Shown in pieces: positions 679 to 63,847 of a stretch of 64,000 bases of DNA. A program made the position numbers and the translations under genes. The first letter of the stretch is position 1, and each line of letters opens with the position of its first letter. The stretch lies in the IMG/VR virus record IMGVR_UViG_2930745263_000002. One strand, given 5' to 3'. The notes below the pieces were generated by a model that searched no databases, was not told the DNA's origin, and saw only the letters and a list, made by a program, of their open reading frames with translations. The stretch is from an uncultured virus (IMG/VR IMGVR_UViG_2930745263_000002). Lineage: Duplodnaviria > Heunggongvirae > Uroviricota > Caudoviricetes.

Positions 679-681
679 CCA

Positions 682-25796: not shown

Positions 25797-25833
25797 CTTC
25801 CCACTATACAACAGTGCGTTGTATAGTGGGAAG
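25797..25833. promoter_or_regulatory. TACAAC-box copy 1, fully palindromic (bidirectional)
   Basis: CTTCCCACTATACAAC agtgc GTTGTATAGTGGGAAG: perfect 16-bp arms. Confidence 0.8.
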
Positions 25834-25842
25834 GAGCCAAAG

Positions 25843-25863
25843 AACAACGCAACGTTGTATAGT
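25843..25863 (+). promoter_or_regulatory. TACAAC-box copy 2 (variant without CTTCC)
   Basis: AACAAC gcaac GTTGTA TAGT. Confidence 0.65.
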
Positions 25864-25907
25864 CAGCGCCGGAGAGGTGGCTCACCCCCGGCACAGGAGG
25901 AGGAATC

Positions 25908-26114
25908 GTGTCCGAGGCACCCCAGTACCCCGACGTGGAAGTGCGGCTCAGCGGCGAGGACGGCAACGTCTACAGCGTGATCGGGCGCATCCAGGAGGCG
26001 CTGCGCCGGGCCGGTCACCGCGAGGCGGCCACCGAGTTCACCCAGGCCGCCCGCAGCTCCGGGTCGTACGACGAGGTGCTCCAGCTCGCCATGCGCACCG
26101 TGGATGTGAGCTGA
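25908..26114 (+). CDS. Small conserved phage protein (DGNxF/Y motif)
   Basis: LSGEDGNVYSVIGRIQEALRRAG...SGSYDEVL; AGGAGG RBS. Confidence 0.75.
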   Translation: MSEAPQYPDVEVRLSGEDGNVYSVIGRIQEALRRAGHREAATEFTQAARSSGSYDEVLQLAMRTVDVS

Positions 26115-26198
26115 CCTCTCCACCCCTACGGTGCGGCCCGCCTCGAGGTAAGCGAGGCGGGCCGCACGCCATCGTCCCAGACACGGAAGGCCCCGACC

Positions 26199-26420
26199 AT
26201 GACCGCGAAGCCGCAGGAACTGTGGGATTACAAGAAGATCGCCGAGGAGACCGGCCTGAGCGTGGGCACGCTGCGGCGGTACAAGAAGACCGGCCACATG
26301 CCCGCGCCGGACGAGCAGCCGGCCCCGGACCGGCCTCGCTGGTACCCGGAGACCATCACGACGTGGATGGCGACCCGCCCGGGGCGCGGCACCCGCACCG
26401 ACCTGAAGGGCGAGCAGTAG
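26199..26420 (+). CDS. AlpA/MerR-like small HTH DNA-binding protein
   Basis: KKIAEETGLSVGTLRRY...MPAPD...PRWYPETITTW..TRPGRG. Confidence 0.75.
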   Translation: MTAKPQELWDYKKIAEETGLSVGTLRRYKKTGHMPAPDEQPAPDRPRWYPETITTWMATRPGRGTRTDLKGEQ

Positions 26421-26486
26421 CCCGCCCCGCTCCCCCGCCGACACCGCGCCCCCCGCTCGCCGCAGCCGGGGGCGCGCGGCGTTTCC

Positions 26487-26590
26487 GGGGCCGGCCGAAC
26501 CGGGCCGAAGAAGATCGCTAACGCCCTTCCATCCTTACAACGTCGCGTTGTATAGTTGATCTCGAAGGGGCGGGCACCGGCCCGGACCGG
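26487..26590 (+). repeat. ~104-bp intergenic linker repeat A, copy 1 (copy 2 at 30226-30330)
   Basis: GGGGCCGGCCGAACCGG...box...TTGATCTCGAAGGGGCGGGCACC...GGCCCGGACCGG shared by both copies. Confidence 0.85.
26526..26556 (+). promoter_or_regulatory. TACAAC-box copy 3
   Basis: CTTCC atcct TACAAC gtcgc GTTGTA TAGT. Confidence 0.8.
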
Positions 26591-26610
26591 AGACACCGAG
26601 GGAGCACCAC

Positions 26611-26817
26611 ATGAACGAGATGACCGTCGCCGACCTGATCGAGCTGCTGGAGCGGCTGGACCCGGAGGCGAAGGTACGGGCGGCGACCCAGCCCAACTGG
26701 CCCTTCGAGTACCGCATCGGCCAGGTCGCCGAGACCGACGGGACCGTCTGGATCGCGGTGGAGGACCAGGTCGGCTACCTGCCCGGCGACGCGCAGGAGG
26801 CGCTCGGCTGGGGCTGA
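26611..26817 (+). CDS. Hypothetical protein
   Basis: MTVADLIELLE..DPEA.V..ATQPNWPFEY; GGGAG RBS. Confidence 0.75.
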   Translation: MNEMTVADLIELLERLDPEAKVRAATQPNWPFEYRIGQVAETDGTVWIAVEDQVGYLPGDAQEALGWG

Positions 26818-26899
26818 CCGGCACGAGCCAGGCGGCCCGCCCTGAGGTAAGCGGGGCGGGCCGCCGCCCCCCGACCACCGACACACAGGAGGCAACGAG

Positions 26900-27115
26900 A
26901 TGTACGACCGCGGAGACCGCGTGGAGCTGGTGGCCACCACCGACCCGCACACGGCCCTAGTGCCCGGCGACCAGGGAACGGTGCGGGCGCTGCACCCGGC
27001 GGGCGCCCTGGGCGGACGCCGCCTCGACGTGACCTGGGACTCCGGATCGCGCCTGACGCTGCTCCTCGACGAGGGCGACGAGGTGCGCCCGGCGCAGCCG
27101 GCACCCCGGCCCTGA
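26900..27115 (+). CDS. DUF4314-like protein
   Basis: GDRVELV.T.DP.T.L.PGD.GTV...V.WDSGS.L; AGGAGG RBS. Confidence 0.75.
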   Translation: MYDRGDRVELVATTDPHTALVPGDQGTVRALHPAGALGGRRLDVTWDSGSRLTLLLDEGDEVRPAQPAPRP

Positions 27116-27141
27116 CCCGGACGAAACAAGATCGCTAAAGC

Positions 27142-27180
27142 CCTTCCAACCTTACAACGTGACGTTGTAAGGTTGGAAGG
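27142..27180. promoter_or_regulatory. TACAAC-box copy 4, fully palindromic
   Basis: CCTTCCAACCTTACAAC gtgac GTTGTAAGGTTGGAAGG: perfect 17-bp arms. Confidence 0.8.
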
Positions 27181-27218
27181 AGAGGCCGGGCCACCGGCCG
27201 CGAGGGGAGGAACCCACG

Positions 27219-27713
27219 ATGTTCACGGTCAGCCTGAACCTGAACCACTACGGCCTACCGGCCAACGACCCGCTGACGATCCACGGAGTCGGCACCTGGG
27301 TGCACGGCACGACCAGCATCCGGTACTCCTTCCACGACCCGGCCATCCACTTCCCCGACTCCGACTGCCCGGTCACCGGGGTCCTGCTGATCGACAAGTA
27401 CATCGACCCGGTCTACCGGGACGACCCCGCCTCGTACGACTTCGACGACGAGCCTGCACTCTCGGTCAGCCTCGGCGACCCGAAGGCCGACGACGTACAC
27501 GACCAGATGGTGGAGGTCGGGGACTGGGGCCTCACCGGCTACGTGGTCTGCAGCGACCTGTACCTCAACCCGGGCCCGCACCCCGACCACCCCGACCGGT
27601 ACCCCTTCGGCGTCGGGGTCGGGCTCGACGCGCCGACCTACTTCGTGGCCTCCAGCCTGCTGCGGGCCGCCGCCGACGACTACGTACGGCGGTGGAAGAC
27701 CACCAACGTCTGA
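27219..27713 (+). CDS. Hypothetical acidic protein
   Basis: GGAGG RBS; high GC3 frame. Confidence 0.7.
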   Translation: MFTVSLNLNHYGLPANDPLTIHGVGTWVHGTTSIRYSFHDPAIHFPDSDCPVTGVLLIDKYIDPVYRDDPASYDFDDEPALSVSLGDPKADDVHDQMVEVGDWGLTGYVVCSDLYLNPGPHPDHPDRYPFGVGVGLDAPTYFVASSLLRAAADDYVRRWKTTNV

Positions 27714-27780
27714 CCCTGCGCCCCGGCTTCACCGCCGGGGCGCAGCCCGCGCCCCGGCCCCCTCGACGAAAGGTTCCGCA

Positions 27781-28197
27781 ATGCCCATGACCTTCGAGCA
27801 GGTCACCCCCGACACCCGCGTCACCTGCCACTCGCGCGGCGGCATCAAGGGGACCGTCCTCAGCAAGAGCGAGAAGGGGTTCGACGACCGGCCCGTCGTT
27901 TTCATCCTCTTCGACGGCGGCGCTTGCGCCTGGAACTGGGCCGAGCAGCTCTCGCCGCTGGACGAGCCGGTCCCGGCCCCCCGGCTCATGCGGAGCGGCA
28001 CCCGGGGCGTCTCGGAGTTCTACAAGGGCGGGCTGCGGTACCAGGTGTTCAACCCGGCGGCGGGGGCCAGGGGGTACTGGCAGGTCTCCCTCGCGCACGA
28101 CGGGACCGGCCCGACCCGGGGCGGCGTGGTGGTGAGCCGGTGCAGTACGCGCAAGGCGGCCTTCGAGGCTGCCCTCGCGAAGCTCGCCGCGAGCTGA
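27781..28197 (+). CDS. Hypothetical protein
   Basis: GAAAGG RBS; high GC3 frame. Confidence 0.65.
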   Translation: MPMTFEQVTPDTRVTCHSRGGIKGTVLSKSEKGFDDRPVVFILFDGGACAWNWAEQLSPLDEPVPAPRLMRSGTRGVSEFYKGGLRYQVFNPAAGARGYWQVSLAHDGTGPTRGGVVVSRCSTRKAAFEAALAKLAAS

Positions 28198-28317
28198 CCG
28201 GGCAGGCGCCCGCCCCTGCGCCCCGGCCCTGCAGCCGGGGCGCAGCCCGTGCCGGCCCCCGCGTACGGGCGCTCCCCCGGGCCCTTCCTCTTCTTCTTCG
28301 GAAGATCGGCGTCACGA

Positions 28318-28348
28318 CTTCCGACTTTACAACGCCGCGTTGTATAGT
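28318..28348 (+). promoter_or_regulatory. TACAAC-box copy 5
   Basis: CTTCC gactt TACAAC gccgc GTTGTA TAGT. Confidence 0.8.
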
Positions 28349-28393
28349 TGGGGTGCAAGGACGGACCGGCAAGCACACACGGAGGAGCAGGAC

Positions 28394-28648
28394 ATGGAGA
28401 TCGACCAGGCCACCACGGACCAGGTCTTCGAGGACGCCCTCGCGGCGGTCTTCCAGGACACCGACCTCGGCAAGGTGGCCTACGTGGGGCTCGGCGACTA
28501 CGCCTACCGGGTCATCGCGGGGGGCGACTACGTCGCCTGCATCGACGGCCGCCAGGGCAACGGCGGCATGGAGTACATCTTCGCCAACGCCACCGCCGAG
28601 CAGGACCGGGCGCTGCGCGAGGTGATCGCCGCCCAGGCCGCCAAGTAG
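28394..28648 (+). CDS. Hypothetical protein
   Basis: MEIDQATT...; GGAGGAG RBS. Confidence 0.7.
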   Translation: MEIDQATTDQVFEDALAAVFQDTDLGKVAYVGLGDYAYRVIAGGDYVACIDGRQGNGGMEYIFANATAEQDRALREVIAAQAAK

Positions 28649-28727
28649 CGGGGCGCGGAGGGGGCTTGCCCTGGGGCAAGCACGGCAAGCCCCCTCGCCC
28701 GCCCGACCCACCGACGAGGAGAACCCC

Positions 28728-29333
28728 GTGACGGTCACCTTCACCGCCGCCCACCGCCCGGCCGTCGGCTACGCCGTCTCCTGCGGCTGCCCCGAGGCCA
28801 CCGAGCGCGCGCCGCGCTACGGCGACTACCAGGACGCCCTGGCCGCCGCCGACCGCGCGACCGCGGCGCCCGTGCGGGCCCCGCTGCCCGGCTGCGACCT
28901 GCCGGAGGTCTGCCCGGACTACCCGCTGCATGCCGAGGAGGTCGACCCCGACGGCACGGTGCCCTGGGTGGAGTTCTCGAACGCCAACGCGGTCGGCGTA
29001 CTCGAGGCCCTAGCCCTCCCCTTCCGGACGGGTTCGGAGGACGGGGCGTGCGACGCGCTCGAGGACGGGTTGCCGCTCGAGGCGGACGGCGCGGGCACGG
29101 TGATCCCGATCGCGGTGGTCGACGCCTACGGCGAGCTGGCCGCCGACGACTTCCGGGGCCGGGTGCTCACCGCCCTCGGCCTGGCCCCCGACGACCCGGG
29201 CAGGCCGGATGTCCAGCTCGGCCGCACCCTGGTCTTCGGACGCCCCGCCGGGTACCTGCAGCGGCGCCTGCGCGAGCTGCACGCACTGGCCGACTGGTGC
29301 GCCGCGCACGGCCGCGACGTGGCCTGGTACTGA
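28728..29333 (+). CDS. Hypothetical protein
   Basis: GAGGAG RBS; SNANA and GRPAGYL..RL..L motifs. Confidence 0.7.
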   Translation: MTVTFTAAHRPAVGYAVSCGCPEATERAPRYGDYQDALAAADRATAAPVRAPLPGCDLPEVCPDYPLHAEEVDPDGTVPWVEFSNANAVGVLEALALPFRTGSEDGACDALEDGLPLEADGAGTVIPIAVVDAYGELAADDFRGRVLTALGLAPDDPGRPDVQLGRTLVFGRPAGYLQRRLRELHALADWCAAHGRDVAWY

Positions 29334-29451
29334 CCCGGTCCGCCCCGCTTGCCCCGGGGCGGACCGCCGCGCCACACGGCCCGCGTGCGCCCGCCGGCCG
29401 CGCGGCCACGTCTCTCACCAGCGGTTTTCTTCATGAAGAGTGCCCACACGA

Positions 29452-29482
29452 CTTCCAACCTTACAACGTCACGTTGTATAGT
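29452..29482 (+). promoter_or_regulatory. TACAAC-box copy 6
   Basis: CTTCC aacct TACAAC gtcac GTTGTA TAGT. Confidence 0.8.
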
Positions 29483-29532
29483 TGATCTCGGAAGGGCGGG
29501 GAAGCCGCCCGAACGAGACCGAGGAGCACCGC

Positions 29533-29871
29533 ATGACCACCACCTGGCGCCGCACCCGGATCAGCAGCCGCTTCGCCCACCGGGACATCGCCGAGGACTT
29601 CGGCCCGGTCGCCGACCTCACCGCCGACGAGCGCGCCTGGCGCCGCGAGGCCTTGGCCGCCGCCTTCACCGGCTACCGCGACGACCGCCTGATGGGGGTC
29701 GGGGGGACCTGGCGCGAGGCCCTCCAGGACGCGGCCGCCACCGGCCGGATCGACCTCGCCGAGCACGACGGCGACCTGGACGTCGCGTACGACAACCTCC
29801 TGCACGGCGCGATCTGGGAGTTCGTGAAGACGCCCGAGGGCGTCGCGATACTCGACACCTGCGCGGCCTAG
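29533..29871 (+). CDS. Hypothetical protein
   Basis: MTTTWRR...; GAGGAG RBS. Confidence 0.7.
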   Translation: MTTTWRRTRISSRFAHRDIAEDFGPVADLTADERAWRREALAAAFTGYRDDRLMGVGGTWREALQDAAATGRIDLAEHDGDLDVAYDNLLHGAIWEFVKTPEGVAILDTCAA

Positions 29872-29943
29872 CGAGCGGCCACCGGCCGCCCCACCCAGGG
29901 GCGGCCGGAACGCGTTTCCATCCCGACGAAGATCGCGTAACCC

Positions 29944-29974
29944 CTTCCCACGCTACAACGCACCGTTGTAAAGT
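29944..29974 (+). promoter_or_regulatory. TACAAC-box copy 7
   Basis: CTTCC cacgc TACAAC gcacc GTTGTA AAGT. Confidence 0.8.
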
Positions 29975-30016
29975 AGGGGGGTAAGGACAAGCCGCCGAAC
30001 AGGGAGGGCGAGAGGC

Positions 30017-30181
30017 ATGGCGGTCATGATGACCCGCCAGGGCAAGCGGCGCGACTACTGCTGCCCCGGCCACAACCCGAAGGAACTCGACCACGGCACC
30101 GAGCGCGCCCGCGAGAACCGCGAGTGGCGGCGCGAGGGAGCCCAGGAGATCGCCGACGCCGAGACCGTCGACCAGGAGTGA
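30017..30181 (+). CDS. 54-aa small protein (absent from ORF track)
   Basis: MAVMMTRQGKRRDYCCPGHNPKELDHGTERARENREWRREGAQEIADAETVDQE*; GGAGG RBS; own box promoter. Confidence 0.65.
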   Translation: MAVMMTRQGKRRDYCCPGHNPKELDHGTERARENREWRREGAQEIADAETVDQE

Positions 30182-30225
30182 CGCCGCGCCCCCGCCCACC
30201 GGAGCCGGGGGCGCGGCGTCGTCGT

Positions 30226-30330
30226 GGGGCCGGCCGAACCGGACCGACGAAGATCCCGAACACCCTTCCATCTCTACAACGCACCGTTGTATAGTTGATC
30301 TCGAAGGGGCGGGCACCCGGCCCGGACCGG
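30226..30330 (+). repeat. Intergenic linker repeat A, copy 2
   Basis: Near-identical to 26487-26590. Confidence 0.85.
30265..30295 (+). promoter_or_regulatory. TACAAC-box copy 8
   Basis: CTTCC atctc TACAAC gcacc GTTGTA TAGT. Confidence 0.8.
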
Positions 30331-30349
30331 TAGGCGAGAGGACACGGAA

Positions 30350-30556
30350 ATGGCCCTGTACATCCTGAAGGAGAACAACTGGGACGGGGTTCCTTTCCGG
30401 GACGACGACACCACCTCGTACTACGACGACGGCGACTTCGACGGCGACGCGTACGCGGCCGCCATCAACGGCTACGACCTGCGGGTCGCGCAGACCGACA
30501 AGGACTGGGGCCCCGGCAAGGGCGCGGTCCGCTGGACCCTGCTGAAGGTCGGCTAG
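30350..30556 (+). CDS. Small acidic hypothetical protein
   Basis: GAGG RBS; Asp-rich. Confidence 0.7.
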   Translation: MALYILKENNWDGVPFRDDDTTSYYDDGDFDGDAYAAAINGYDLRVAQTDKDWGPGKGAVRWTLLKVG

Positions 30557-30593
30557 CCGACCCCGGCCCCGCCACGGGCCGGGGTCCGCCCGT

Positions 30594-32156
30594 TCAGCGG
30601 CGCCCGTTGAGGCGCCCGTCGGGCCCGCCGCGGTAGTTGCCCGTCCCGCTGCCCGCGACCGTCGGGTCGGCCAGCTCGGTCAGCGCGTGCACCGCGGCGT
30701 CCATCCGGTCCGGGCTGTCCATGCCGGGCATCCAGGTGACCATCTGCACCTCGAGCGCCGGCCACTCCCCCACGTGGTGCACGTGCCCCTGCTCGTAGAG
30801 CTGCGCGATCGGCTCCGCCCGGAGCCGTTTGCCCTTTTTGGCCGTGACCGGCACGATCCGCGGGCGCAGCGCCCCGGAGGCCGCGCCCTCGCGGACCAGC
30901 TCCTCCCACCCCTGGACGAGGACCTGCTTGGTCATGTCGCCGCCGAAGTTGCTCTCGACCGTGAGGGCGTCGGCGTCGAATTCCAGGGCGAGTTCGCAGG
31001 CCGCGCGGCCCCATTCGGCCGCGCCCATCTTCGCGGAGCGGTCGGCCAGGATGTACAGCTCGCCCGCCGCGTCGCGGCCGGCCGCCACGATGCCGACCTC
31101 GTCGCCGTCCTCGCTGCCGCCCGCCGGGTCGACCGCGACGACGACCCGGGTGAGCTTGATGCCGCGCAGCCGCTCCTCGGTGATGCGCCGGCCGCGGATC
31201 CACGCCCACTGCCAGATGCCGCCCTCGAGCGGGCGGGGCTGCTGCTGGTAGAGCGCCCACCAGCCGCGCTCACCGACCTCGTCGCGGAAGTCGGCGAGGT
31301 GGCCGAGGTTGAACCGCTCGGGCCACAGCGGCGCACCGATGGGCCGGCCCAGGGCGTCGTCCGGGCTGTCGGCGATCGCCGGGAGGTTGATGACGGTCCA
31401 GCGCGCCTTGTCGCGGGCGGCGTCCTGGGTGAGGATCCGCCCCGCCAGGTCGTTCTCCGACCAGCGGGTCTGGATGACCACGATGCTGCCGGTCGGCTCC
31501 ATACGGGTGTTGAGGACCTGCTGCCACCAGTCCCACAGGTCACCGAGCACCGTGGGGCTGGCCGCGGCCTTCGCATCCTTCAGCGGGTCGTCGACCACGG
31601 CGAGGTGCGCGCCCATACCGGTCAGCGACCCGCCGACGCCGGCGGTCACCAGGCCGCCGGGGCTGCCACTGAGGTCGAAGCGGCCGGCGGCCTTGGAGCC
31701 GTAGCGCAGAGAGATGCCGAGCTGTTCGCCGTGCTCGTTGATCGAGTCGCGCAGCCACCGGCCGTGGCCCTCGGCGAGCACCGCCGAGTAGGACGCGATC
31801 ATCAGCCGGTGCGTCGGGTTGCGGCGCAGGTACCACAGCGGCGCCCACCGGGCAGCCCGCTGGCTCTTCCCGTGCCTCGGAGGCATGTTGAGCAGCAGCC
31901 GTACGCGTTCGCCGCGGGCGATGCGGATGAACGCGTCGTCGATGAGCTGGAGGTGGCGGGGCTGCATCTCCCGGCCGCCGGTGAGCAGGGCGGCCAGCGA
32001 CCCGGGCGAGCGGTCCATGGCCATCTCGCGCTCGAGGTGGGCCAGTCGGATACGAAGGTCGGGCGAGGCGGTACGCGCGATGGCGAGGCGCTGCTCGCGC
32101 GGAAGGGTGCGGTAGCGGGTCAGGAGGCGCTGCTCCCGGTCCTGCGCCTGCATCAT
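30594..32156 (-). CDS. terL: Terminase large subunit
   Basis: Walker A MPPRHGKS, Walker B AVVDDP, QTRW..NDL.G, VAVDPA and SPDRMDA nuclease motifs. Confidence 0.92.
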   Translation of the reverse strand: MMQAQDREQRLLTRYRTLPREQRLAIARTASPDLRIRLAHLEREMAMDRSPGSLAALLTGGREMQPRHLQLIDDAFIRIARGERVRLLLNMPPRHGKSQRAARWAPLWYLRRNPTHRLMIASYSAVLAEGHGRWLRDSINEHGEQLGISLRYGSKAAGRFDLSGSPGGLVTAGVGGSLTGMGAHLAVVDDPLKDAKAAASPTVLGDLWDWWQQVLNTRMEPTGSIVVIQTRWSENDLAGRILTQDAARDKARWTVINLPAIADSPDDALGRPIGAPLWPERFNLGHLADFRDEVGERGWWALYQQQPRPLEGGIWQWAWIRGRRITEERLRGIKLTRVVVAVDPAGGSEDGDEVGIVAAGRDAAGELYILADRSAKMGAAEWGRAACELALEFDADALTVESNFGGDMTKQVLVQGWEELVREGAASGALRPRIVPVTAKKGKRLRAEPIAQLYEQGHVHHVGEWPALEVQMVTWMPGMDSPDRMDAAVHALTELADPTVAGSGTGNYRGGPDGRLNGRR

Positions 32157-32196
32157 CAGGGGCTCCGTGCACCCCCGCGCACCTGTACATGATCTC

Positions 32197-32613
32197 TCAC
32201 ATCAGAGGGTCGTCGCCGAGGGCGAGGAGTTCTTCCAGCTCGGCGCTGGTCACGGAGACCGCGTCCAGGGGGGCGAGCGCGACTTCGAGCCGGGCCGGCG
32301 CGTCCAGTCCGTGCAGCCGGCTTCGGCGCTCGCTCAGGCGCACCACCGTCTCGATCGCGTCGAGGTCGCCGTCGAGGGCCTTCTGCCAGATCGCGTCCTG
32401 CAGTTCGTCGAGGCTGTGGCTCTCGGCCTGGTGCCGTACGGCCGGCTCGAGGTGGTCGGCGTCGTGGAGCGCGTCGGCGAACGCGGCGGCCGCGGCGGCT
32501 CGGTCGGGGAAGCCGAGCTCGTCGGCGATCTCCTGGAAGTCCTTGCCGGAGTGGCGCAGGCGCACGGTCTCCGCCCGGCGGTCGGCGTCGCTCCAGCGGG
32601 GGGTGTCGGCCAT
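32197..32613 (-). CDS. Terminase small subunit-like HTH protein (copy 1)
   Basis: RLRHSGKDFQEIADELGF...GDLDAIETV.RL.ERRSRLHGLDAP; directly upstream of terL. Confidence 0.75.
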   Translation of the reverse strand: MADTPRWSDADRRAETVRLRHSGKDFQEIADELGFPDRAAAAAAFADALHDADHLEPAVRHQAESHSLDELQDAIWQKALDGDLDAIETVVRLSERRSRLHGLDAPARLEVALAPLDAVSVTSAELEELLALGDDPLM

Positions 32614-32686
32614 ACGGATGTCCTCCATGAGACACACCGCCCGGAGGCGGTGTGGTGCCCCGTTGGCGGGGCGGCTCGGCACGCGG

Positions 32687-32974
32687 TTACTGGGGCTGCT
32701 GGATCAGCCGGTCGTCGACCACGGCCTTGTACCTGGCGGCGAGGAGGGTGCTCTCCGCTCGTCGGCAGGTGCGGGAGATCTCGGCCGCGTCCATGGTGTC
32801 GGGCAGCTCGTGCCAGGTGTAGATCGCGTGGCTCTTCCGCTCGAAGCCGAGGCCGTCGAGGGCGGCGAGCAGGATCTCGGGGGCGCCGGTGCGGGACTCG
32901 GCCACCACCGTGGTAGTCAGGGGCCGTCGGTGGATCAGGACGTCGATGTCGTTGTCGTCGGCCTGGTTGCTCAA
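32687..32974 (-). CDS. Hypothetical protein
   Basis: TTG start with AAGGAGG RBS; downstream of box copy 9. Confidence 0.65.
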   Translation of the reverse strand: MSNQADDNDIDVLIHRRPLTTTVVAESRTGAPEILLAALDGLGFERKSHAIYTWHELPDTMDAAEISRTCRRAESTLLAARYKAVVDDRLIQQPQ

Positions 32975-33058
32975 GGTGTCCTCCTTGGTGCGTGGGTGAG
33001 AGGGGGTCAGAGGGGCAGGTCGCCGCGTGCCTCTTCGTGGTCCGTCCTTACACCCCCC

Positions 33059-33089
33059 ACATTACAACGATGCGTTGTAATGATGGAAG
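33059..33089 (-). promoter_or_regulatory. TACAAC-box copy 9
   Basis: Minus strand CTTCC atcat TACAAC gcatc GTTGTA ATGT. Confidence 0.8.
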
Positions 33090-33133
33090 CGGGTGCGCGA
33101 TCCTTCCCCGATCTGTTTTGCCTGGTCAGAAGG

Positions 33134-34183
33134 TCACAGGACCTTGTCCCGCAGGGTCTGCGCGATCGCCCGCATCAGCAGAGGCGGCACTGAGTTGCCC
33201 AGCCGCATCCACACCTTGTCGACGGGGCTGTTGCCCCAGTCGTACTCGTCGGGGAAGGACTGGAGCCGGGCCAGCTCGCGGATGCCCAGGAGCCGGTCCT
33301 CGTCGGGGTGGAGCAGGCCGTTGCGGGACGCGCTGATCTCCTTGATCAGCGTGTAGGAGGGCCGGTCCCAGGCGAGGCGCTCCAGGCTGAAGTAGGCGTC
33401 CTTCCCGCCGGCCCGCCGCAGGGCGTCGCCGCCGTTCTCGCCGGGGCGGATGAGCGGGGCCACCAGGGCGGCCTTGCCGGAGGGGCGCTGGAAGGGGCCG
33501 GGGTCGGTGAGGTCGGCGAGGGCTTCGCGGACGGTGATGGGGCGCGCGATCGCCGCCGGGTGGGGCGGCTTGATGCCGAGGTCCGCGCGGACCCCGACGA
33601 AGATCATGCGCTGTCGGCGCTGCGGGACCTGGAAGTAGCTGGCGTCCATCAGGCGGGCGACGACCCGGTAGCCGGGCCGCGCCTGCTTGAGGGTCTGCAG
33701 GATCTCGACGAACAGACTGCGCATCTTGCCCTTGACCATGCCGGCGACGTTCTCCATGACGAACGCCTTCGGCTGCCAGTGCTCCAGCAGCCGTACGTAC
33801 TGGCGGAAGAGCTGGTTGCGCGGGTCGTCGACCTGGCGGCGGCCGACGACGGAGAAGCCCTGGCAGGGCGGACTGCCGTCGAACACGTCGAGTTCGCCCG
33901 GCTCCAGGCCCAGGCTGGCCGGGTCGAAGCCGGTGATGTCGCCGTGGTGGAGCGGGACGTGGGGGAAGTTGCGGGCGAAGGTCGCCGCGGCGTGGTCGTC
34001 CCACTCGACGGCCAGCAGCTCCCGGTAGCCGGCCATGGAGTAGCCGAGGCTGGAGCCGCCGGCCCCGGCGAAGGTGGACACCACGGTCGGCGCGTCGGCG
34101 GCGGCCGGCGCGAGGTGGGCGGCCCACATCTCCGCCAGGAGCTGGCCGTACGCGAGGCGGGAGTTGATGACCGGCGCGCTCAC
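33134..34183 (-). CDS. DNA (cytosine-5) methyltransferase
   Basis: FAGAGG, GSPPCQGFS, ENVAG, QRRQRMIF, RLQSFPD, LGNSVPP. Confidence 0.92.
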   Translation of the reverse strand: MSAPVINSRLAYGQLLAEMWAAHLAPAAADAPTVVSTFAGAGGSSLGYSMAGYRELLAVEWDDHAAATFARNFPHVPLHHGDITGFDPASLGLEPGELDVFDGSPPCQGFSVVGRRQVDDPRNQLFRQYVRLLEHWQPKAFVMENVAGMVKGKMRSLFVEILQTLKQARPGYRVVARLMDASYFQVPQRRQRMIFVGVRADLGIKPPHPAAIARPITVREALADLTDPGPFQRPSGKAALVAPLIRPGENGGDALRRAGGKDAYFSLERLAWDRPSYTLIKEISASRNGLLHPDEDRLLGIRELARLQSFPDEYDWGNSPVDKVWMRLGNSVPPLLMRAIAQTLRDKVL

Positions 34184-34716: not shown

Positions 34717-34922
34717 GAGGGTGCGGGTCCTTCGCTGCGGACCGCGGCGATGACGCGCGCGGCCCAGTCGTCGGGCTCCAGGCCCCACCGGCGCGCGTCC
34801 CACTCGGTGGCGCGGTCGCGGTAGTCGAGCCAGGTGTCCAGGAGCTGGTCACGGAGGTCGGGGTCGAGGGTCAGGCGCAGCTGGGTGGCGAGCCGGCCGT
34901 ACGCCGCGGGGTGCGCCGGCAT
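34713..34922 (-). CDS. Hypothetical protein
   Basis: Translationally coupled on both sides. Confidence 0.55.
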   Translation of the reverse strand: MPAHPAAYGRLATQLRLTLDPDLRDQLLDTWLDYRDRATEWDARRWGLEPDDWAARVIAAVRSEGPAPS

Positions 34923-35383
34923 CAGGACACCGCCGGGCCGGGCTGGGCGGGCGGCTCGTCGATCAGGGTGATCAGCGCCTCGAGTTCGGCCAGGTCGACG
35001 GTCTCCACCTGCAGCGGGCCGCCGTCGGCACCGGTGATCTCGGCGCGGGCCGGCTTGTCCAGGCCGAGCAGCCGGCAGCGCCGGTCGATGACCTTCAGGA
35101 CGGTCTCGATCGCCTTGAGGTCGCCCTTGGCCGCCTTGGCCCAGGCGGCGGCCTGCATGCGGTCCAGACGCTGCACTTCCAGTTCGCGCAGGGTCTGCGC
35201 GGCCGCCGACTCGGCTTCGAGGTTCTCCTCCAGGGCGCGGTGGACGTCCTTGGACGCCGCCCCGCGCGAGGAGTAGTCGAGCCGGTCGGCGATGGTCTGG
35301 TAGTCCATGCCGGCCAGGCGCAGCGCGATCGCCTGCGCGCGGCGCTTGGACGTGGAGGCGCGTTGCGCCTTGGACGCGGGCAT
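34922..35383 (-). CDS. Terminase small subunit-like HTH protein (copy 2)
   Basis: ALRLAGMDYQTIADRLDY...GDLKAIETVLKVIDRRCRLLGLDKP...EITGADGGPL. Confidence 0.75.
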   Translation of the reverse strand: MPASKAQRASTSKRRAQAIALRLAGMDYQTIADRLDYSSRGAASKDVHRALEENLEAESAAAQTLRELEVQRLDRMQAAAWAKAAKGDLKAIETVLKVIDRRCRLLGLDKPARAEITGADGGPLQVETVDLAELEALITLIDEPPAQPGPAVS

Positions 35384-38166: not shown

Positions 38167-38468
38167 GTCGTTCTGGCCCCTCCTTGCATGGGGTGGCACC
38201 CTGCGCGTGACCCGCCCTGGCCACCGTCCCCCGGTTCAGGCATATGCCGAAGGCCGATCATCGCCGCCCACAATCCGACATGTCAACCACTGTTAAGAGC
38301 AAGACGTTTCAGATGCGGCTGTTCGGGCATCCACTTCGATTTTCACTGTTCAGACCCCTCAAGAGTTGTTGATACTAGGCTCGGCGGGCATACTGCGTGC
38401 AGCACAACGACCGCATGTACTGGCCGGGGGTTCGAGTGGGAGATCGCAGCGCGCGCGAGGGGGGCGAG

Positions 38469-38906
38469 GTGGCCCCAGCGAGCGTCACCGAGGAGTTGCT
38501 GGTCAAGCACTCCGCCAAGTTCGCCGAGCGCCTGGACCATCTCTTCAAGAACATGTATCCGGCCTCGCAGGGCCGGCCCTACACGCACGGCGAGATCGCC
38601 CGGGCGACGGGTCTGAGCACCACCGCGATCGGCTACCTGCGCTCGGGGCGCAGCAGTCCCAGCCTGGAAACCGCCATCCTCATCGCGGGCGCCTTCGAGG
38701 TGCCGCTCGAGGTGTTCGTCGACGACGCGATCGCCGAGGACGTCAAGGCGGACCTGGCCGACCTGGCGGCGTTCCGCGACAAGCGGGCCCGCCGGATCAT
38801 GCGCCGCTCTGCGGGCCTGCCGGCTCATATGCAGGACTCCCTCGACCTGGTCATCACCGAGTACCGCCGTGCGGCGGGCCTGCCGACCGACTCCGATGAA
38901 GATTAG
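38469..38906 (+). CDS. XRE-family HTH regulator
   Basis: FAERLDHLF...RPYT..EIARATGLSTTAIGYLRSG...PSLET. Confidence 0.85.
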   Translation: MAPASVTEELLVKHSAKFAERLDHLFKNMYPASQGRPYTHGEIARATGLSTTAIGYLRSGRSSPSLETAILIAGAFEVPLEVFVDDAIAEDVKADLADLAAFRDKRARRIMRRSAGLPAHMQDSLDLVITEYRRAAGLPTDSDED

Positions 38907-39091
38907 AACGCGCGTGCGATATACGTTGACAGCAGCGCCGGGGGTCTGTGACGTTACTGAACGGTAGGGCAGGAGCCCGCCGGGTACGAAAGGGGCATCG
39001 TGATCAGGGACGAGCGAACGGCTGGAGACCAGCTCCCCCCGATACGCCCTAGAAGCACTTCCCCTCGCCGGGACCGGCCGCCGCGCAGGCG

Positions 39092-41708: not shown

Positions 41709-41901
41709 ACCCCCGTTTCGGGGGGCCTCTCCGGTGCCGGGGCCGGTGGCCCTGCACCCACTCTCCCTGTCTCGACCGGGCGTTGCCCCCGTGGGGACTC
41801 GGTCCGGTCGACCGGTGGGGCGTGCCCTTTCGCCCTTCCCGGCGCTGCCTACCGTACATGAAACCCAATACACATGGAAGCTGATTCGGTGCGCTCGATC
41901 G

Positions 41902-41932
41902 CTTCCATCTTTACAACGTCGCGTTGTATAGT
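41902..41932 (+). promoter_or_regulatory. TACAAC-box copy 10
   Basis: CTTCC atctt TACAAC gtcgc GTTGTA TAGT. Confidence 0.8.
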
Positions 41933-41970: not shown

Positions 41971-42408
41971 ATGAGGCACACGGCGAAGCAGACGAACCTT
42001 CGGACCCTCGAAGACCTGCACAAGGCCCTCGCCCGCAAGCGCCCGGTCACCATCCACGCCCTGAAGGAAGAGAAGGACGAGCGCGGCCGCAAGACCGGCA
42101 ACCTGGTCCCGACGCTCCGCACGCTCGAGATCTACGACCTCACCACCACGGCCGACGGCAACATCCTGATCCACGGGATGGACCGCGAGACCGGCGAGGA
42201 CCGCAACTTCCGCCTCGACCGGCTCCTGGCCTACACGGTCCACCGCACCACCTACACGATCGCGCGGCCCGCGCCGGAGGCCGACGCCGAGCGCCCCGAC
42301 TTCGCCTACGAGGCCGACTTCATCGCCTGGGAGATCGCCCGCACCGACGCCGAGTACTGGACCGAGTACCTCGACGAGGCCCGCCCCGTACAGGCCCTCG
42401 CCGCCTGA
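41971..42408 (+). CDS. Stand-alone WYL-domain protein
   Basis: RTLEIYDL...DRETGEDRNFRLDRL; no HTH. Confidence 0.75.
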   Translation: MRHTAKQTNLRTLEDLHKALARKRPVTIHALKEEKDERGRKTGNLVPTLRTLEIYDLTTTADGNILIHGMDRETGEDRNFRLDRLLAYTVHRTTYTIARPAPEADAERPDFAYEADFIAWEIARTDAEYWTEYLDEARPVQALAA

Positions 42409-56926: not shown

Positions 56927-56929
56927 GCC

Positions 56930-57694: not shown

Positions 57695-57708
57695 GACCGG
57701 CTCGCGCT

Positions 57709-59438: not shown

Positions 59439-60674
59439 ATGTACGACGACCGCCCGGCATGGGCGCAGCGGATGGAAGCCGAGCGAGCTGCCCGGGGTTG
59501 GAGTCCTCTGGATGCCGCCCGGGCGATGAAGGCGCACTCGTCCGCTCCGCTCCCGGACGACAAGGCGCTGGCCCGGCAGTGGCGCCGGTGGGAGTCCGGC
59601 GACATCGAGCCCCGCGACCACAAGGAGCTGATCGCCACGGTGTGCGGCACGACGACCCACGCGTTCTTCCCGGTGGCGCACAAGCGCGACGGGCGCGCGG
59701 AGATCCAGGCCGCCTCGGGCATGGACACCGTGGACATCGTGGCGCGGCTGCGTGCCAGCGACGTCGACCAGGCCACCCTCGACGCGGTGGCGATCACCGT
59801 CGACCGGCTGTGCTCGGAGTACGCCTACATGCCCAGCGACCAGCTCCTCATCGAGGGCCGGGCCTGGCTGACCCGCGTCGCCGGCATGCAGCAGCAGCGC
59901 CTCACCCTGGCCCAGCACCGCGAGGTCCTGGTGCAGGCCGGGATGCTGACGCTGCTGGTGGGCTGCGTGGAGTACGACTCCGGCGGGCCGGCGCTGCGCC
60001 GCGCGGCGGAAGGCACCCGGCAGGCCGCGCTGTCCCTCGGCAGGGAGGCCGGCCATCCGCTGATCATCGGGTGGGGCCACGAGATGCGGGCGTGGTTCGC
60101 CCTGACCCGCGGGGACCTTCGCGGGGTGATCGCCGCCGCAGACGAGGGCATCCTGGCCGCGCCGGAGGAGAGCGTCGCCGTGCAGCTCTGGGCGCAGAAG
60201 GCCAAGGCGTGGGCCCGGCTCGGTGACCGCCGCCAGGTCGAGGTCGCGCTCGACTCCGGCCGCCGGCTCCTCGAGGGCATGGGCTACCCGGAGAACCCGG
60301 AGAACCACTTCACGGTCGACCCGGCCAAGTGGGACTTCTACGCCATGGACTGCTACCGCAAGCTCGGCGAGGACCGGCTGGCGGAGACACTGGCCCGCGA
60401 GGTGCTCCGGGCCGGCGTCGACCACGACGGAACGGACCGCGCTCCGATGCGGAACGCGGAGGCGCGGGTGACCCTCGGCGTCGTCGCGGCCCGGCAGGGC
60501 GCGGTCGACGAGGCGGTCTCGTACGGGATGAAGGCCCTGGGCGGCGCGCGCCAGTCGCTGCCTTCGCTGTCCATGGTCGCCAGCGATCTGGGCAGCGTGC
60601 TGTCGGCCGACCACGCCGACGAGCCCGAGGCCCGCGAGTTCCTCACCCACCTGCGGACGCTGCGCAGCGCCTGA
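59439..60674 (+). CDS. XRE-HTH + TPR-like regulator
   Basis: AERAARGWS...RQWRRWESG...; helical repeat C-terminus; AAGGAGG RBS. Confidence 0.8.
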   Translation: MYDDRPAWAQRMEAERAARGWSPLDAARAMKAHSSAPLPDDKALARQWRRWESGDIEPRDHKELIATVCGTTTHAFFPVAHKRDGRAEIQAASGMDTVDIVARLRASDVDQATLDAVAITVDRLCSEYAYMPSDQLLIEGRAWLTRVAGMQQQRLTLAQHREVLVQAGMLTLLVGCVEYDSGGPALRRAAEGTRQAALSLGREAGHPLIIGWGHEMRAWFALTRGDLRGVIAAADEGILAAPEESVAVQLWAQKAKAWARLGDRRQVEVALDSGRRLLEGMGYPENPENHFTVDPAKWDFYAMDCYRKLGEDRLAETLAREVLRAGVDHDGTDRAPMRNAEARVTLGVVAARQGAVDEAVSYGMKALGGARQSLPSLSMVASDLGSVLSADHADEPEAREFLTHLRTLRSA

Positions 60675-60830
60675 CGGACCACGGGGGTACGCAGTCGAAA
60701 GCCCATCCGAGCCTGGGAGCCCCGTCGGGGCCCCGGGCTCGTGTCATGCCCAGCGCGGCCCTCCCCCGCAGCGGCGCCCAGTTTCCGCGAAGAGTATTCA
60801 CGCCGGTAGACGCGGGTGCATACTCGGGTT

Positions 60831-61076
60831 ATGGCTGACACCACCGTGAAGATCGATTCAGAGACGCGGGACCGGTTCGCCGCGATCGCTGCCGCCCGCG
60901 GGCAGAGCGTGCGCTCCTACCTGTCCGAGCTGGCCATAGAGGAGGAGAACCAGATCTCCCTGGGCCGGGCCACCGCCGCCTTCCGCGAGGCGATCAGCCG
61001 GCCGGGGCTCCTCGAAGCCTTCGACCGCGACTTCGGCGGGCTCCCCGAGACGCAGCACGGCAGCCGGGCGGCCTGA
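60831..61076 (+). CDS. Ribbon-helix-helix antitoxin, probably leaderless
   Basis: MADTTVKIDSETRDRFAA.A..RG.S...YL; CATACT 6 nt before the ATG and no RBS. Confidence 0.7.
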   Translation: MADTTVKIDSETRDRFAAIAAARGQSVRSYLSELAIEEENQISLGRATAAFREAISRPGLLEAFDRDFGGLPETQHGSRAA

Positions 61077-61079
61077 CCC

Positions 61080-61460
61080 TTGAATCTGCACATCGACATC
61101 CGCTGGCTCCTCAGCCGCCAGGAGGAACTGCTCGGCAAGGACCTGGCGGTGTCCGACTACTCGGCGCTCGTGGCCGCGGTGGCACGCCACCGGGTGAACA
61201 CCCCACAGTTGGACGTCGACGACCCGGACGCATACTGGCGGGCGGCCGCGCTGCTGCAGCAGATCGTGCTCGTGCAGCCGTTGCCGGCGCGCAACGAGGT
61301 CTTCGGGTACGGCGTGGCCGTGGCCTACGTCAAGGCGTCCGGGGAGAGCATCGACGGCTCGATCGACGAGTGGCGGGCCCTGATGGCCGACGTACGGGCG
61401 CTGCGAGTGAACGTCTTCGACATCGCCGACCGGCTGCGTTCGATGCGTACCCCTGAATGA
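61080..61460 (+). CDS. Doc/Fic-like toxin with degenerate motif
   Basis: DYSALVAAVARH...RAAALL..IV..QPLPARNEVFG. Confidence 0.65.
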   Translation: MNLHIDIRWLLSRQEELLGKDLAVSDYSALVAAVARHRVNTPQLDVDDPDAYWRAAALLQQIVLVQPLPARNEVFGYGVAVAYVKASGESIDGSIDEWRALMADVRALRVNVFDIADRLRSMRTPE

Positions 61461-62096: not shown

Positions 62097-62194
62097 CCTT
62101 CGATCATGCCACTCGTGGTTTGCGCAGCTCAGGGGGCCTGTGGGAGCAGGTCGGCCCCCGTACGGGGTACGGGGGCCGGTGGGGCGGGTGCCCT

Positions 62195-62464
62195 TCAGGC
62201 GGGGGCCGGTGCCGCGCTCTCGGCCCGGGCGGCCGCGACCAGGCGGTCGAGGAGCTCGGCCAGCTCGTCGTGGCCCTCGTACAGCCGGTCCTCGGCGAGG
62301 TGGATCTCCACCCGTGCCCGCTCGATGGCCTCGGGGCTGTCGGCCCGTACGGCGGCGACCAGGGCGTCGAGCAGCTCGGCGAGGTCGTCGTGGCCCTCGT
62401 ACATCCGGTCGAGGTCGAGGTGGATCGCGGCGGCGGCGTGGCTGACGGTCTCGGTGGCGTGCAT
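62195..62464 (-). CDS. Small protein made of two ~40-aa repeats
   Basis: IHLDLDRMYEGHDDLAELLDALVAA / IHLAEDRLYEGHDELAELLDRLVAA. Confidence 0.75.
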   Translation of the reverse strand: MHATETVSHAAAAIHLDLDRMYEGHDDLAELLDALVAAVRADSPEAIERARVEIHLAEDRLYEGHDELAELLDRLVAAARAESAAPAPA

Positions 62465-62485
62465 GGTCTTGCCCTTCGTTCGTGC

Positions 62486-62614
62486 GTCGTCCTTACCCCC
62501 CAACTATACAACGCGACGTTGTATAGAGGGAAGCGGGTCAGCCCTCTTTCCCGGCCCGCCGGCCAGGTCCCCGGGACAGGCCGAGGCCCCGCGGCGTGCG
62601 CCGCGGGGCCGGTC
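62486..62614 (-). repeat. 129-bp intergenic linker repeat B, copy 1 (terminator hairpin + box)
   Basis: Near-identical to 63072-63200. Confidence 0.85.
62503..62533 (-). promoter_or_regulatory. TACAAC-box copy 11
   Basis: Minus strand CTTCC ctcta TACAAC gtcgc GTTGTA TAGT. Confidence 0.8.
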
Positions 62615-62635
62615 CGGGTGGCGCGAGTCGGCAGG

Positions 62636-63046
62636 TCAGTTGACCGTGACGGTGGTGCCGTACTGGACCGCGCACCGGTCGGCGGCGGAACGGTCGTTGA
62701 AGTAGGTCGGGGTGCGGCCGACCATGACGGTGAAGGGGTACTGGGGGCGGTGCGGGTTGCAGGACCCGTCGCAGTAGGTCGTCTCGCCGAGATTGGCACC
62801 GCTCAGGAGGTCGCCGTCCTCGCCGGCGTGGCCCTCGCACTCCGGCTCCGCGTCGGAGGGGGCCAGGACGACGTGGCGCCCGTCCTTGTAGGTGATGTCG
62901 TAGTGGCCGCCGTCGACGGAGATCTTGCGGACGTGGGCTCGGTCGCTCACTCGGTCGAGCATTGCCGCCCGGCCTTCGGTCAGCGCCTCCTCGGCGGTCA
63001 CGCGGGTGATGGCGCCGTCCTCAGTGCGCTCGTAGACCTCGGTCAT
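62636..63046 (-). CDS. Hypothetical protein with Cys/His motif
   Basis: ECEGH...YCDGSC; GGGGAG RBS. Confidence 0.7.
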   Translation of the reverse strand: MTEVYERTEDGAITRVTAEEALTEGRAAMLDRVSDRAHVRKISVDGGHYDITYKDGRHVVLAPSDAEPECEGHAGEDGDLLSGANLGETTYCDGSCNPHRPQYPFTVMVGRTPTYFNDRSAADRCAVQYGTTVTVN

Positions 63047-63071
63047 TTTCGTCTCCCCTGTTCGCCTTGCT

Positions 63072-63200
63072 GTCGTCCTTACCTCTCAACTATACAACAC
63101 CGCGTTGTAAGGAGGGAAGCGGGTCGGCCCTCTTTCCGGGCCCGCCGGCCAGACCCCCGGGACAGGCCGGGGCCCCGCGGCGCGCGCCGCGGGGCCGGTC
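63072..63200 (-). repeat. Intergenic linker repeat B, copy 2
   Basis: Near-identical to 62486-62614. Confidence 0.85.
63089..63119 (-). promoter_or_regulatory. TACAAC-box copy 12
   Basis: Minus strand CTTCC ctcct TACAAC gcggt GTTGTA TAGT. Confidence 0.8.
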
Positions 63201-63324
63201 AGGGCTCGCCGCACCCCGCAGGGCAGTTGACCAGGTTGCGGCAGCGGCAGCCGGGGGTGAACTCGTTCTCCGAGCAGCCGCACTCCGCGCACCGCTCTTC
63301 GCTGTTCTCGGGGTGGTCCACCAT
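63199..63324 (-). CDS. 41-aa Cys-rich peptide (absent from ORF track)
   Basis: MVDHPENSEERCAECGCSENEFTPGCRCRNLVNCPAGCGEP*; AGGAGG RBS. Confidence 0.6.
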   Translation of the reverse strand: MVDHPENSEERCAECGCSENEFTPGCRCRNLVNCPAGCGEP

Positions 63325-63393
63325 GGCGTGGCCTCCTGGGTCTGTCGGGGCCCCGCGGCGGGTGCCGCGGGGCCGGGTGCTCCGCGTTGGGGC

Positions 63394-63777
63394 TCACGCG
63401 AAGGTGCTGTGGAAGTGCTGGGCGATCTGGGCGAGGTGGTCGGCGGCGTGCTGCCGGGCGGCCGGGTCGTCGATGTCGGCCAGGGGGAACTTGGTCGGGG
63501 TGTGCGGGTGCGGGTGCGGGGTGAAGTCGCCGCCGGTGGCCATCACCGTGCCGGTGAGCAGCCAGTCGCCGATGGTGAGGCCGGTGAGGCCGTAGCCGCT
63601 GGTGTCGCCCGGCCTGCCGAGGCTGATGGTCACCGCGAGCCGGTCGGGCTGGCCGAAGTAGGCGGGCTGTACGTGGATCTTGCCCTGGTCGCCGAAGTTG
63701 TACAGCGCGTTGCCGAGGTCCTTGAAGTAGCTGATGGTGGCGGTGTCGCCGTTGTCGAAGTGGGCCGTGGTCCGCAT
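63394..63777 (-). CDS. Hypothetical protein
   Basis: GGAAGG RBS; downstream of box copy 13. Confidence 0.7.
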   Translation of the reverse strand: MRTTAHFDNGDTATISYFKDLGNALYNFGDQGKIHVQPAYFGQPDRLAVTISLGRPGDTSGYGLTGLTIGDWLLTGTVMATGGDFTPHPHPHTPTKFPLADIDDPAARQHAADHLAQIAQHFHSTFA

Positions 63778-63816
63778 GGTCGTGCCTTCCGTCGCTATGT
63801 CGTTCTTACGTGTCAG

Positions 63817-63847
63817 ACTTTACAACGCCGCGTTGTATGAGGGGAAG
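63817..63847 (-). promoter_or_regulatory. TACAAC-box copy 13
   Basis: Minus strand CTTCC cctca TACAAC gcggc GTTGTA AAGT. Confidence 0.8.

Follow-up and report, generated by a model that had tools for sequence, protein, structure and literature searches.

The 64,000-nucleotide sequence analysed here (hereafter the window), from an uncultured Caudoviricetes virus (IMG/VR record IMGVR_UViG_2930745263_000002), contains 13 copies of a 17-bp dyad, TACAAC-N5-GTTGTA, which lie in promoter-like cassettes. The window is taken to be the virion-plus-right arm of a Streptomyces phage-plasmid of roughly 140-165 kb, because it aligns to ~72.9-144.5 kb of a 151,949-bp plasmid of Streptomyces sp. NA02950 (W01). 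We consider it about an even chance (probability ~0.5) that the cassette is a promoter-operator for one element-encoded dimeric regulator, which would act by repression on packaging, virion and small-gene units alike.

Occurrence, orientation and conservation of the dyad

The dyad (TACAACNNNNNGTTGTA) was found in 12 exact copies in the window and in 13 copies when one mismatch was allowed, the additional site being that at 25843, which begins with AACAAC. These are the positions already listed in the first-pass annotation, and no dyad was produced in 100 dinucleotide-preserving shuffles of the window (mean count 0.00, maximum 0). Every copy is located at or beyond position 25807.

Because the 17-mer is its own reverse complement, the strand of each copy was read from its flanks. 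Nine copies (25807, 25843, 26536, 27153, 28328, 29462, 29954, 30275, and 41912) lie on the plus strand and four (33063, 62507, 63093, and 63821) on the minus strand; on the plus-strand reading, the latter show GGAAG 5 nt past the dyad and GTCCTTAC ahead of it. Once oriented in this way, 12 of the 13 copies carry all five bases of CTTCC exactly 5 nt upstream and all 13 carry TA..GT, the -10 hexamers being TATAGT (nine copies), TAAAGT (two), TAAGGT (one), and TAATGT (one). The earlier statement that CTTCC precedes 12 copies and that TAnnGT always follows is therefore correct for oriented copies, but in its unoriented form it had missed that four copies lie on the other strand. An upstream GAAGATC, attributed before to many copies, matches exactly in 5 of the 13 and as a near variant in a further 5, and the downstream sequences GTAAGGAC and TGATCTCGAAGG are exact in 5 and 2 copies, respectively. 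All 13 copies are intergenic, as had been claimed, when judged against the 79 genes called in the window by third-position G+C content (GC3); G+C content is 68-75% across the whole window.

The same dyad is present in a family of related elements. The nearest record is W01, with 82% identity across 44% of a 20-kb query; the family also includes two IMG/VR records, G001 (141,694 bp) and G002 (51 kb, a fragment sharing ~90% identity with the window), and contigs of five Streptomyces genomes (G006 to G010). In total, 109 dyad sites were found across the relatives. At one mismatch or less, W01, G001, and G002 contain 15, 14, and 8 sites, respectively, and a reversed-pattern control gave none. When a position weight matrix (PWM) of the family sites was applied, no extra copy exceeding 14 bits was found in the window, where the real sites score at least 32.7; family sites score at least 22, and the interval from 14 to 22 is empty in the window, W01, and G001.

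A scan of the genomes of ~186,000 species for TTCC-N5-dyad returned mostly single chance matches in unrelated low-G+C organisms, and multi-copy clusters were confined to Streptomyces contigs. The first-pass annotation had named in advance an equal spread of the motif over host chromosomes as an observation that would count against its proposal; in the five whole Streptomyces genomes (7.8-9.9 Mb), all 39 exact dyads are instead located on 8 contigs, each of which is part of this element family. We therefore regard the dyad as an element-specific signal, not a host operator. A search with the g33 family (see below) for relatives carrying a swapped palindrome retrieved only three IMG/VR records and, among plasmids, W01 alone. 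No publication on the TACAAC/GTTGTA dyad or on this element family was found among the titles listed by searches of the open-access literature.

Some dyads have neither a CTTCC box nor a downstream gene (W01 150531 and 150763, G001 3421, G006 contig C52 85092, and G007 contig C29 92190). Those in W01 and G001 lie between convergent genes for a DNA ligase and a primase-polymerase, with a GC-rich hairpin within ~10 nt. Such boxless dyads could be stand-alone operators or promoters of very short RNAs.

Cassette anatomy and the units headed

A logo was made of 50 oriented sites from four sequences, with positions numbered from the first dyad base:

-26 to -21 and -16 to -14: A-rich stretches (GAAGAT and AAA)
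-10 to -6: CTTCC (T-9 in 41/50 and T-8 in 40/50 sites), followed by A/C, A/T, and C at -5 to -3
1 to 17: TACAACG-N3-CGTTGTA, with arms (1-6 and 12-17) 94-100% conserved, G7 92%, C11 90%, and a variable centre
18 and 19: T or A, then any base
20 and 21: G and T, each in 50/50 sites
beyond 21: TG.GGTG

Read as a promoter, the cassette consists of TTCC[A/C][A/T], an 18-bp spacer, and TA[T/A]NGT, with an A-tract upstream. The bases expected of a -10 element of the principal sigma factor (TAnnnT), namely T16, A17, and T21, are present in all 13 window copies and all 50 logo sites. Agreement of the -35 with TTGACA is limited to 2-4 of 6 positions, and only the copy at 25807 satisfies a 9-of-12 rule; the earlier description of the cassettes as strong promoters is not supported. 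Start codons in the window lie 58-105 nt past the dyad start in promoter orientation, each with a ribosome-binding site (RBS), and 93 of the 109 family sites combine TA..GT with a called gene start 10-115 nt from the dyad start (median 64). GC-rich hairpins are located directly upstream of several cassettes (e.g. at 62507, -50.6 kcal/mol, and at 29954, -37.5 kcal/mol), and two types of leader recur, one with TGATCTCGAAGG followed by a small hairpin and the other with GGGGGGTAAGGAC. From this order, each unit looks like a terminator, a promoter-operator, a leader, and one or more genes. Sequence and comparison together (TTCC, 18 bp, TAnnGT, an RBS, a gene start ~60 nt on, and an upstream terminator-like hairpin) thus support the earlier proposal that the cassettes are promoter-like modules with the dyad filling the spacer.

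The proposal that the dyad resembles the site of a dimeric protein also gained from the comparison: its arms are conserved, its centre is variable, and the sites are kept at orthologous positions in diverged relatives. In addition, the symmetry extends outward, C(-3) and G(20) being paired in 92% of sites and C(-6) and G(23) in 78%. As the G at the fifth position of the -10 and the C after the -35 are not demanded by promoter consensus, we take them to be outer protein contacts. The dyad centre lies ~19-20 nt ahead of the predicted transcript start, and we take it that a bound protein would cover approximately -34 to -4 relative to that start.

GATC occurs inside the upstream GAAGATC box (positions -26 to -20) in 7 of the 13 copies and recurs in the TGATCTCGAAGG leader. 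Because the element also encodes several DNA methyltransferases, methylation-sensitive control of the cassette promoters is conceivable.

The cassettes of the window and the virion genes are as follows:

25797..25833, both strands: bidirectional cassette (dyad at 25807), a 37-nt perfect palindrome CTTCC-N5-TACAAC-N5-GTTGTA-N5-GGAAG, hairpin -25.3 kcal/mol
25815..25863, plus: second site of the tandem pair (25843), AACAAC-N5-GTTGTA-TAGT without CTTCC, heads g29-g30, start codon 65 nt downstream
26508..26556, plus: cassette 26536, heads g31-g32
27125..27179, plus: cassette 27153, heads g33-g34; includes a 37-nt perfect palindrome (27143-27179, -25.9 kcal/mol)
28300..28348, plus: cassette 28328, heads g35-g36
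29434..29482, plus: cassette 29462, heads g37; likely start ATG at 29533 with a GAGGAG RBS (the gene caller placed the start 20 nt past the dyad start)
29926..29974, plus: cassette 29954, heads g38; -10 TAAAGT
30247..30295, plus: cassette 30275, heads g39, which is convergent with the end of the large terminase gene
33059..33107, minus: cassette 33063, heads g42-g41 (TerS-like)-g40 (large terminase); CTTCC 5/5, -10 TAATGT, gene gaps of 4 and 40 bp
41884..41932, plus: cassette 41912, heads g52, a WYL-domain protein gene (41971-42408)
62503..62551, minus: cassette 62507, heads g76-g75
63089..63137, minus: cassette 63093, heads g77
63817..63865, minus: cassette 63821, heads g79-g78
~700-25365 and 30594-32156, minus: virion genes, with Pfam matches for a siphovirus tail tape-measure protein, tail tube, major capsid protein, head decoration protein, and large terminase
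30594-32156, minus: large terminase gene g40 (Pfam)
23545-25365, minus: gene for a putative portal protein of 606 aa, without a Pfam match and assigned by position and size

The first-pass annotation had concluded that no copy stands before a structural gene and that the sites form a regulon of tiny accessory genes. Neither conclusion survives at the operon level, since the minus-strand copy at 33063 heads the terminase operon and the minus reading of 25807 heads g28, the portal gene, and the contiguous virion genes, so that both operons carry the same cassette as the small units. A promoter scan at 25807 gave TTCCCA-18-TATAGT on both strands (CTTCC 5/5 and TA..GT 2/2 each way); the start of g28 (25765) is 58 nt away on the minus reading and that of g29 is 101 nt away on the plus reading. 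The minus reading keeps TA..GT in W01 and G008, with a start 64 nt off, and in W01 we read TTGCCA as its -35. A twin with a degenerate left arm ~36 bp past the first site is also present in W01, G001, G002, and G008, and G010 has a tandem pair 29 bp apart.

Eleven small plus-strand genes (g29-g39) form a 4.7-kb block at 25908-30556, in which each unit has its own cassette. The block faces opposite to the large terminase and portal genes between which it sits, and this insertion is kept in all relatives. Two of the small genes headed by cassettes, g33 (27219-27713) and g79 (63394-63777), are paralogues (27% identical, with common PHPH and GDW motifs); both are kept in G001, W01, G006, G007, and G010, whereas one was found in G009 and one in the G002 fragment. 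Among ~20 small proteins, for which host-takeover or anti-defence roles had been suggested, family matches were obtained only for g30 (MerR/Xis/AlpA-type winged helix), g32 (DUF4314), and g52 (WYL); a search of 24 proteins against NCBIfam added nothing, and g29 matched only unnamed, mostly viral Atlas clusters. The model of g37 (predicted local distance difference test score, pLDDT, 88.8; one model of five) consists of a helical hairpin and a small alpha/beta part, for which neither Foldseek (lowest E 0.56) nor VIA (top Z 4.5) gave a significant match. Profiles of fam90, g37, g31, and g35 gave no match better than E 0.4 among PDB sequences.

Mode of control and candidate regulators

In the reading that we favour, each cassette would be a full start signal for the host's principal RNA polymerase, with transcription starting ~7 nt past the -10. 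The dyad TACAACG-N3-CGTTGTA would fill the spacer and extend over the first two -10 bases, and one element-encoded dimeric (or higher-order) protein binding to it would cover the whole core promoter. The same protein would switch all units together, about a dozen here and 8-15 per relative; these would comprise the terminase operon, the portal/virion operon (through the bidirectional copy), and some ten one- or two-gene units with no assigned function. Occupancy would silence the units during plasmid-prophage maintenance, and induction would release them. Repression would be consistent with the placement of the dyad, which overlaps the -10 and reaches the -35 with its outer arms, and with the twin site at the divergent g28/g29 junction in the relatives examined. 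Furthermore, 5'-CGATCTTGACTT-3' precedes the dyad at W01 6604 and G001 10415; the TTGACT in this sequence is read as a near-consensus -35, suggesting promoters that work unaided.

Several observations weigh against repression. The -35 is poor and yet conserved, as it is in activator-dependent promoters, and the cassettes head packaging and virion operons, while the late genes of well-studied phages are positively controlled (PMC10695390). Cassettes cluster in the virion and right arm, and few occur in the replication arm (in W01, 2 of 15 sites lie in the first 72 kb). Direct control of the portal operon would not extend to every element, since in G001, G007, and G002 no CTTCC box accompanies the first site when it is read on the minus strand. 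Except for g30, no conserved gene for a DNA-binding protein was found to have a site at its own promoter, and the recognition helix of g30 differs between elements, whereas the dyad does not.

These points are in part what would be expected if the cassettes were a class of late promoters and the dyad were the site of an activator made by the element earlier in lytic growth, like Lpa of phage P1, the weak -35 being unusable alone. Cassettes at the head of the terminase and portal operons, their clustering around the virion module, and the retention of a non-consensus -35 all fit such a scheme; moreover, MerR-type activators also bind dyads in the spacer, and g30, the sole site-linked regulator-like gene, has a MerR-type winged helix. 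However, a protein on a dyad that covers the -10, with outer arms over the -35, would occlude polymerase unless it were bound on the opposite face; the spacer, at 18 bp, is shorter than that of MerR promoters (19-20 bp); g30 has no helix for dimerisation; and the single tiny genes that many cassettes serve, placed between terminase and portal, resemble autonomous units rather than late operons. Activation is the main rival reading, which we consider clearly less probable than repression.

It is also conceivable that no dedicated regulator exists and that the copies descend from one promoter-terminator module spread with gene cassettes, the palindrome serving polymerase or a DNA or RNA hairpin. 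The cassettes at 26536, 29462, and 30275 have TGATCTCG(G)AAGGGCGGG in common, and those at 26536 and 30275 also share an upstream CCGGCCGAACCGG, which suggests duplication; in addition, two copies are the 37-nt perfect palindromes of ~-25 kcal/mol listed above. However, the arms stay unchanged across elements of only ~80% identity in which the 3-nt centre and the flanks have diverged, the core hairpin is weak (-7.7 kcal/mol, with an A/T-rich stem), and the symmetric outer positions (C-3/G20) are not explained by the -35/-10 consensus. A scan of 24500-34000 for intrinsic terminators (a G+C-rich stem and a T run) found none at any copy. We consider this reading improbable.

Still less probable is a loading site for a processive antiterminator of the lambda Q, 21Q, or Pseudomonas aeruginosa AlpA type, which would bind between -35 and -10, join a paused polymerase, and allow terminator read-through in long operons. 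The virion operon is ~25 kb long and GC-rich hairpins are frequent between units, but antitermination is not needed in units of one or two genes, which most cassettes head, and no conserved -10-like pause element was seen just past the start. The AlpA site is a 6-bp asymmetric element bound by one molecule (PMC9371919), not a 17-23-bp dyad as found here.

Least probable of all is a borrowed operator of a host global regulator (e.g. LexA, BldD, or a GntR-type protein). There is a likeness between the half-site and the SOS box of actinobacteria (CAAC-N5-GTTG compared with GAAC-N4-GTTC), and relatives carry a LexA paralogue, but no exact dyad lies outside element contigs in the five whole genomes, the SOS-box spacing and one arm base differ, the window contains no box with intact GAAC-N4-GTTC cores at two mismatches or less, and the LexA paralogue has a TCGAAA-N4-GTTCC box of its own and is absent from W01, which has 15 dyads.

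The search for the protein that would bind the dyad gave candidates that can only be ranked. Proteins from 11 sequences were clustered, and DNA-binding families present in all complete relatives were sought; two candidates lie in the window:

26199..26420, plus: g30, a 73-aa winged-helix protein of the MerR/Xis/AlpA/BldC type; weak candidate
1..678, plus: g1, a GntR/HutC-type regulator (Pfam GntR, 2.1e-16); weak candidate

The g30 family is found in all elements and, located after the conserved twin site, is the only DNA-binding gene behind sites in every relative; g30 is for this reason a candidate regulator of the dyad, albeit a weak one. A profile search of the PDB gave the AlpA-family entry 8c3t (E 1.9e-4) ahead of MerR and BldC. 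The AlphaFold2 model (pLDDT 74.9) has an H-H-wing-H arrangement with helices only at 11-18, 22-31, and 50-59, and Foldseek matched it to the DNA-binding domain of the MerR-family protein HiNmlR (probability 1.00) and to BldC (0.99). Two features count against g30 as the reader, namely the lack of a dimerising helix in this model and the variation of the recognition helix among elements (RRYKKTG, RYYWSQK, or RFYNSVG) while the dyad stays constant. Homologues of the g30 domain often have 2-4 copies per chain (133-330 aa), and in one protein of 2424 aa 35 stretches were matched. On a reading of the site as four CAAC/GTTG boxes, CAAC-N4-CAAC-N5-GTTG-N4-GTTG, g30 might then bind the four boxes as a cooperative multimer and act MerR-style in the spacer, activating or locking all lytic-phase units including the bidirectional promoter. 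We regard this scheme as unlikely, though somewhat less so than spread of a module without a regulator; if true, it would represent a MerR-like spacer mechanism without the MerR dimer helix, deployed genome-wide in a virus.

The g1 protein is conserved in all complete relatives, and its winged-helix region is invariant in the alignment. The PWM detected no site near the g1 orthologues, hence none at the g1 promoter in the relatives. A third candidate, a 'MarR-like' protein of ~200 aa with two winged helices (W01 3619-4203), has an invariant recognition helix, and the PWM likewise detected no site at its promoter; by synteny with G006, its gene would lie ~9 kb past the right end of the window.

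Two further candidates were rejected. The LexA paralogue is not considered to read the dyad, since an SOS-like box of its own accompanies it and W01 does not have it. This paralogue (LexA_DNA_bind and Peptidase_S24 domains) is present in five of six complete relatives: G001 (60553-61215; L165:11553-12212), G006 contig C52 (1033-1665), G007 contig C43, G009 contig C8, and G010 contig C5. Four of the five have a TCGAAATCTTGTTCC box upstream, and G006 contig C52 has TCGAAATAGTGTTCC; in the element represented by the window, the gene should, by synteny, be located ~13 kb to the left of the window. The pair g49/g50 gave no tblastn match in W01, G001, or G002. These genes, encoding an XRE protein (HTH_3, 169 aa) and a 183-aa protein with an HExxH motif (ImmA/IrrE-like by eye), occupy 38397-39643 in a variable region after the methylase genes and look like a repressor/anti-repressor protease pair.

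The parent element and known systems

To the right of the virion genes, the window encodes DNA methyltransferases, ParB-like proteins, a DUF2637 protein, WhiB, several GntR regulators, a 1288-aa FtsK/SpoIIIE protein, and a replication-initiator-like winged-helix protein. The FtsK/SpoIIIE and DUF2637 genes (44564-48430 and 51466-53871), which we read as Streptomyces conjugation-type genes (TraB/Spd-like), thus reside in one element with a full virion module. Two TerS-like paralogues, g41 (32197-32682) and g46 (34922-35383), both match phrog_645 and share an N-terminal helix-turn-helix (HTH) and a C-terminal ...RLLGLD/RLHGLD; g41 adjoins the large terminase gene, and g46 is located among methylase and ParB-like genes. 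A toxin-antitoxin-like pair at 60831-61460, g73 (81 aa, weak ParD-antitoxin match) and g74 (126 aa), was not found in the relatives. An Rfam scan of the whole window gave no match at the gathering score, and a tRNA scan of the window detected none. A Streptomyces muensis contig (G008:C5, 66000-92000) is 98% identical to NZ_CP054917.1, the NA02950 plasmid record, and spans both of its ends (12652..1 joined to 151949..138583), indicating that this 'linear' record is circular, circularly permuted, or arbitrarily cut.

The cassette marks out the transcription units of a large Streptomyces phage-plasmid family, of which at least eight members were found among genomes and plasmid records. The small-gene block between terminase and portal would be wired to the same switch as the packaging and virion operons. 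Each cassette also appears to be a compact, apparently insulated terminator-promoter-operator part, which, with the regulator in hand, could be used as a module for regulated expression in Streptomyces.

Several known systems share parts of this arrangement. In MerR promoters, the operator lies in a -35/-10 spacer of 19-20 bp and the regulator has a coiled-coil dimer helix. The dyad described here is also placed between -35 and -10, but the spacer is 18 bp, and g30, the sole MerR-type protein, consists only of a 73-aa winged helix and lacks the coiled-coil dimer helix. The 6-N5-6 geometry of the dyad matches that of lambda-type operators, which are 17 bp long (6-5-6) and are bound by dimers of CI/Cro-type HTH proteins; it differs in that no CI-like protein is conserved across the element family. 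The stoperators of mycobacteriophage L5 represent a comparable regulatory logic. The Streptomyces temperate phage phiC31, with its c repressor and a family of conserved early promoters, has 17-bp conserved inverted repeats (CIRs) at many intergenic sites, beside near-identical promoters and terminators; phiC31 integrates, is ~41 kb long, and has its CIRs in the early region. Unlike these early sites, the sites described here also head terminase and virion operons, in a phage-plasmid of ~150 kb.

The nearest isolated phage is ZL12 (pZL12, 90,435 bp), whose large terminase is 58.7% identical at the amino acid level over 94% of its length and which likewise combines virion genes with an FtsK/SpoIIIE-type gene. 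It is ~60 kb smaller than the present element, and the dyad is absent from it at two mismatches or less.

The late promoters of phage P1 lack a -35 box, whereas CTTCC is kept here, and the operators of the P1 C1 repressor are scattered, asymmetric 17-mers, whereas the present site is a perfect dyad. P1 has 11 late promoters, and in each of them the activator Lpa binds a 9-bp inverted repeat (PMC10695390). P1 resembles the present element as a plasmid-prophage with many small units and one DNA word in dispersed promoters, including those of packaging and particle genes, although the host phylum and the sequence are different. The P1 combination of a -10 with an upstream inverted repeat at dispersed late operons is shared here in architecture only. 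In kind, the proposed circuit would fit the known practice of temperate phages and plasmid-prophages; its regulatory logic is known from C1 and Lpa of P1, and the sequence of the dyad is new.

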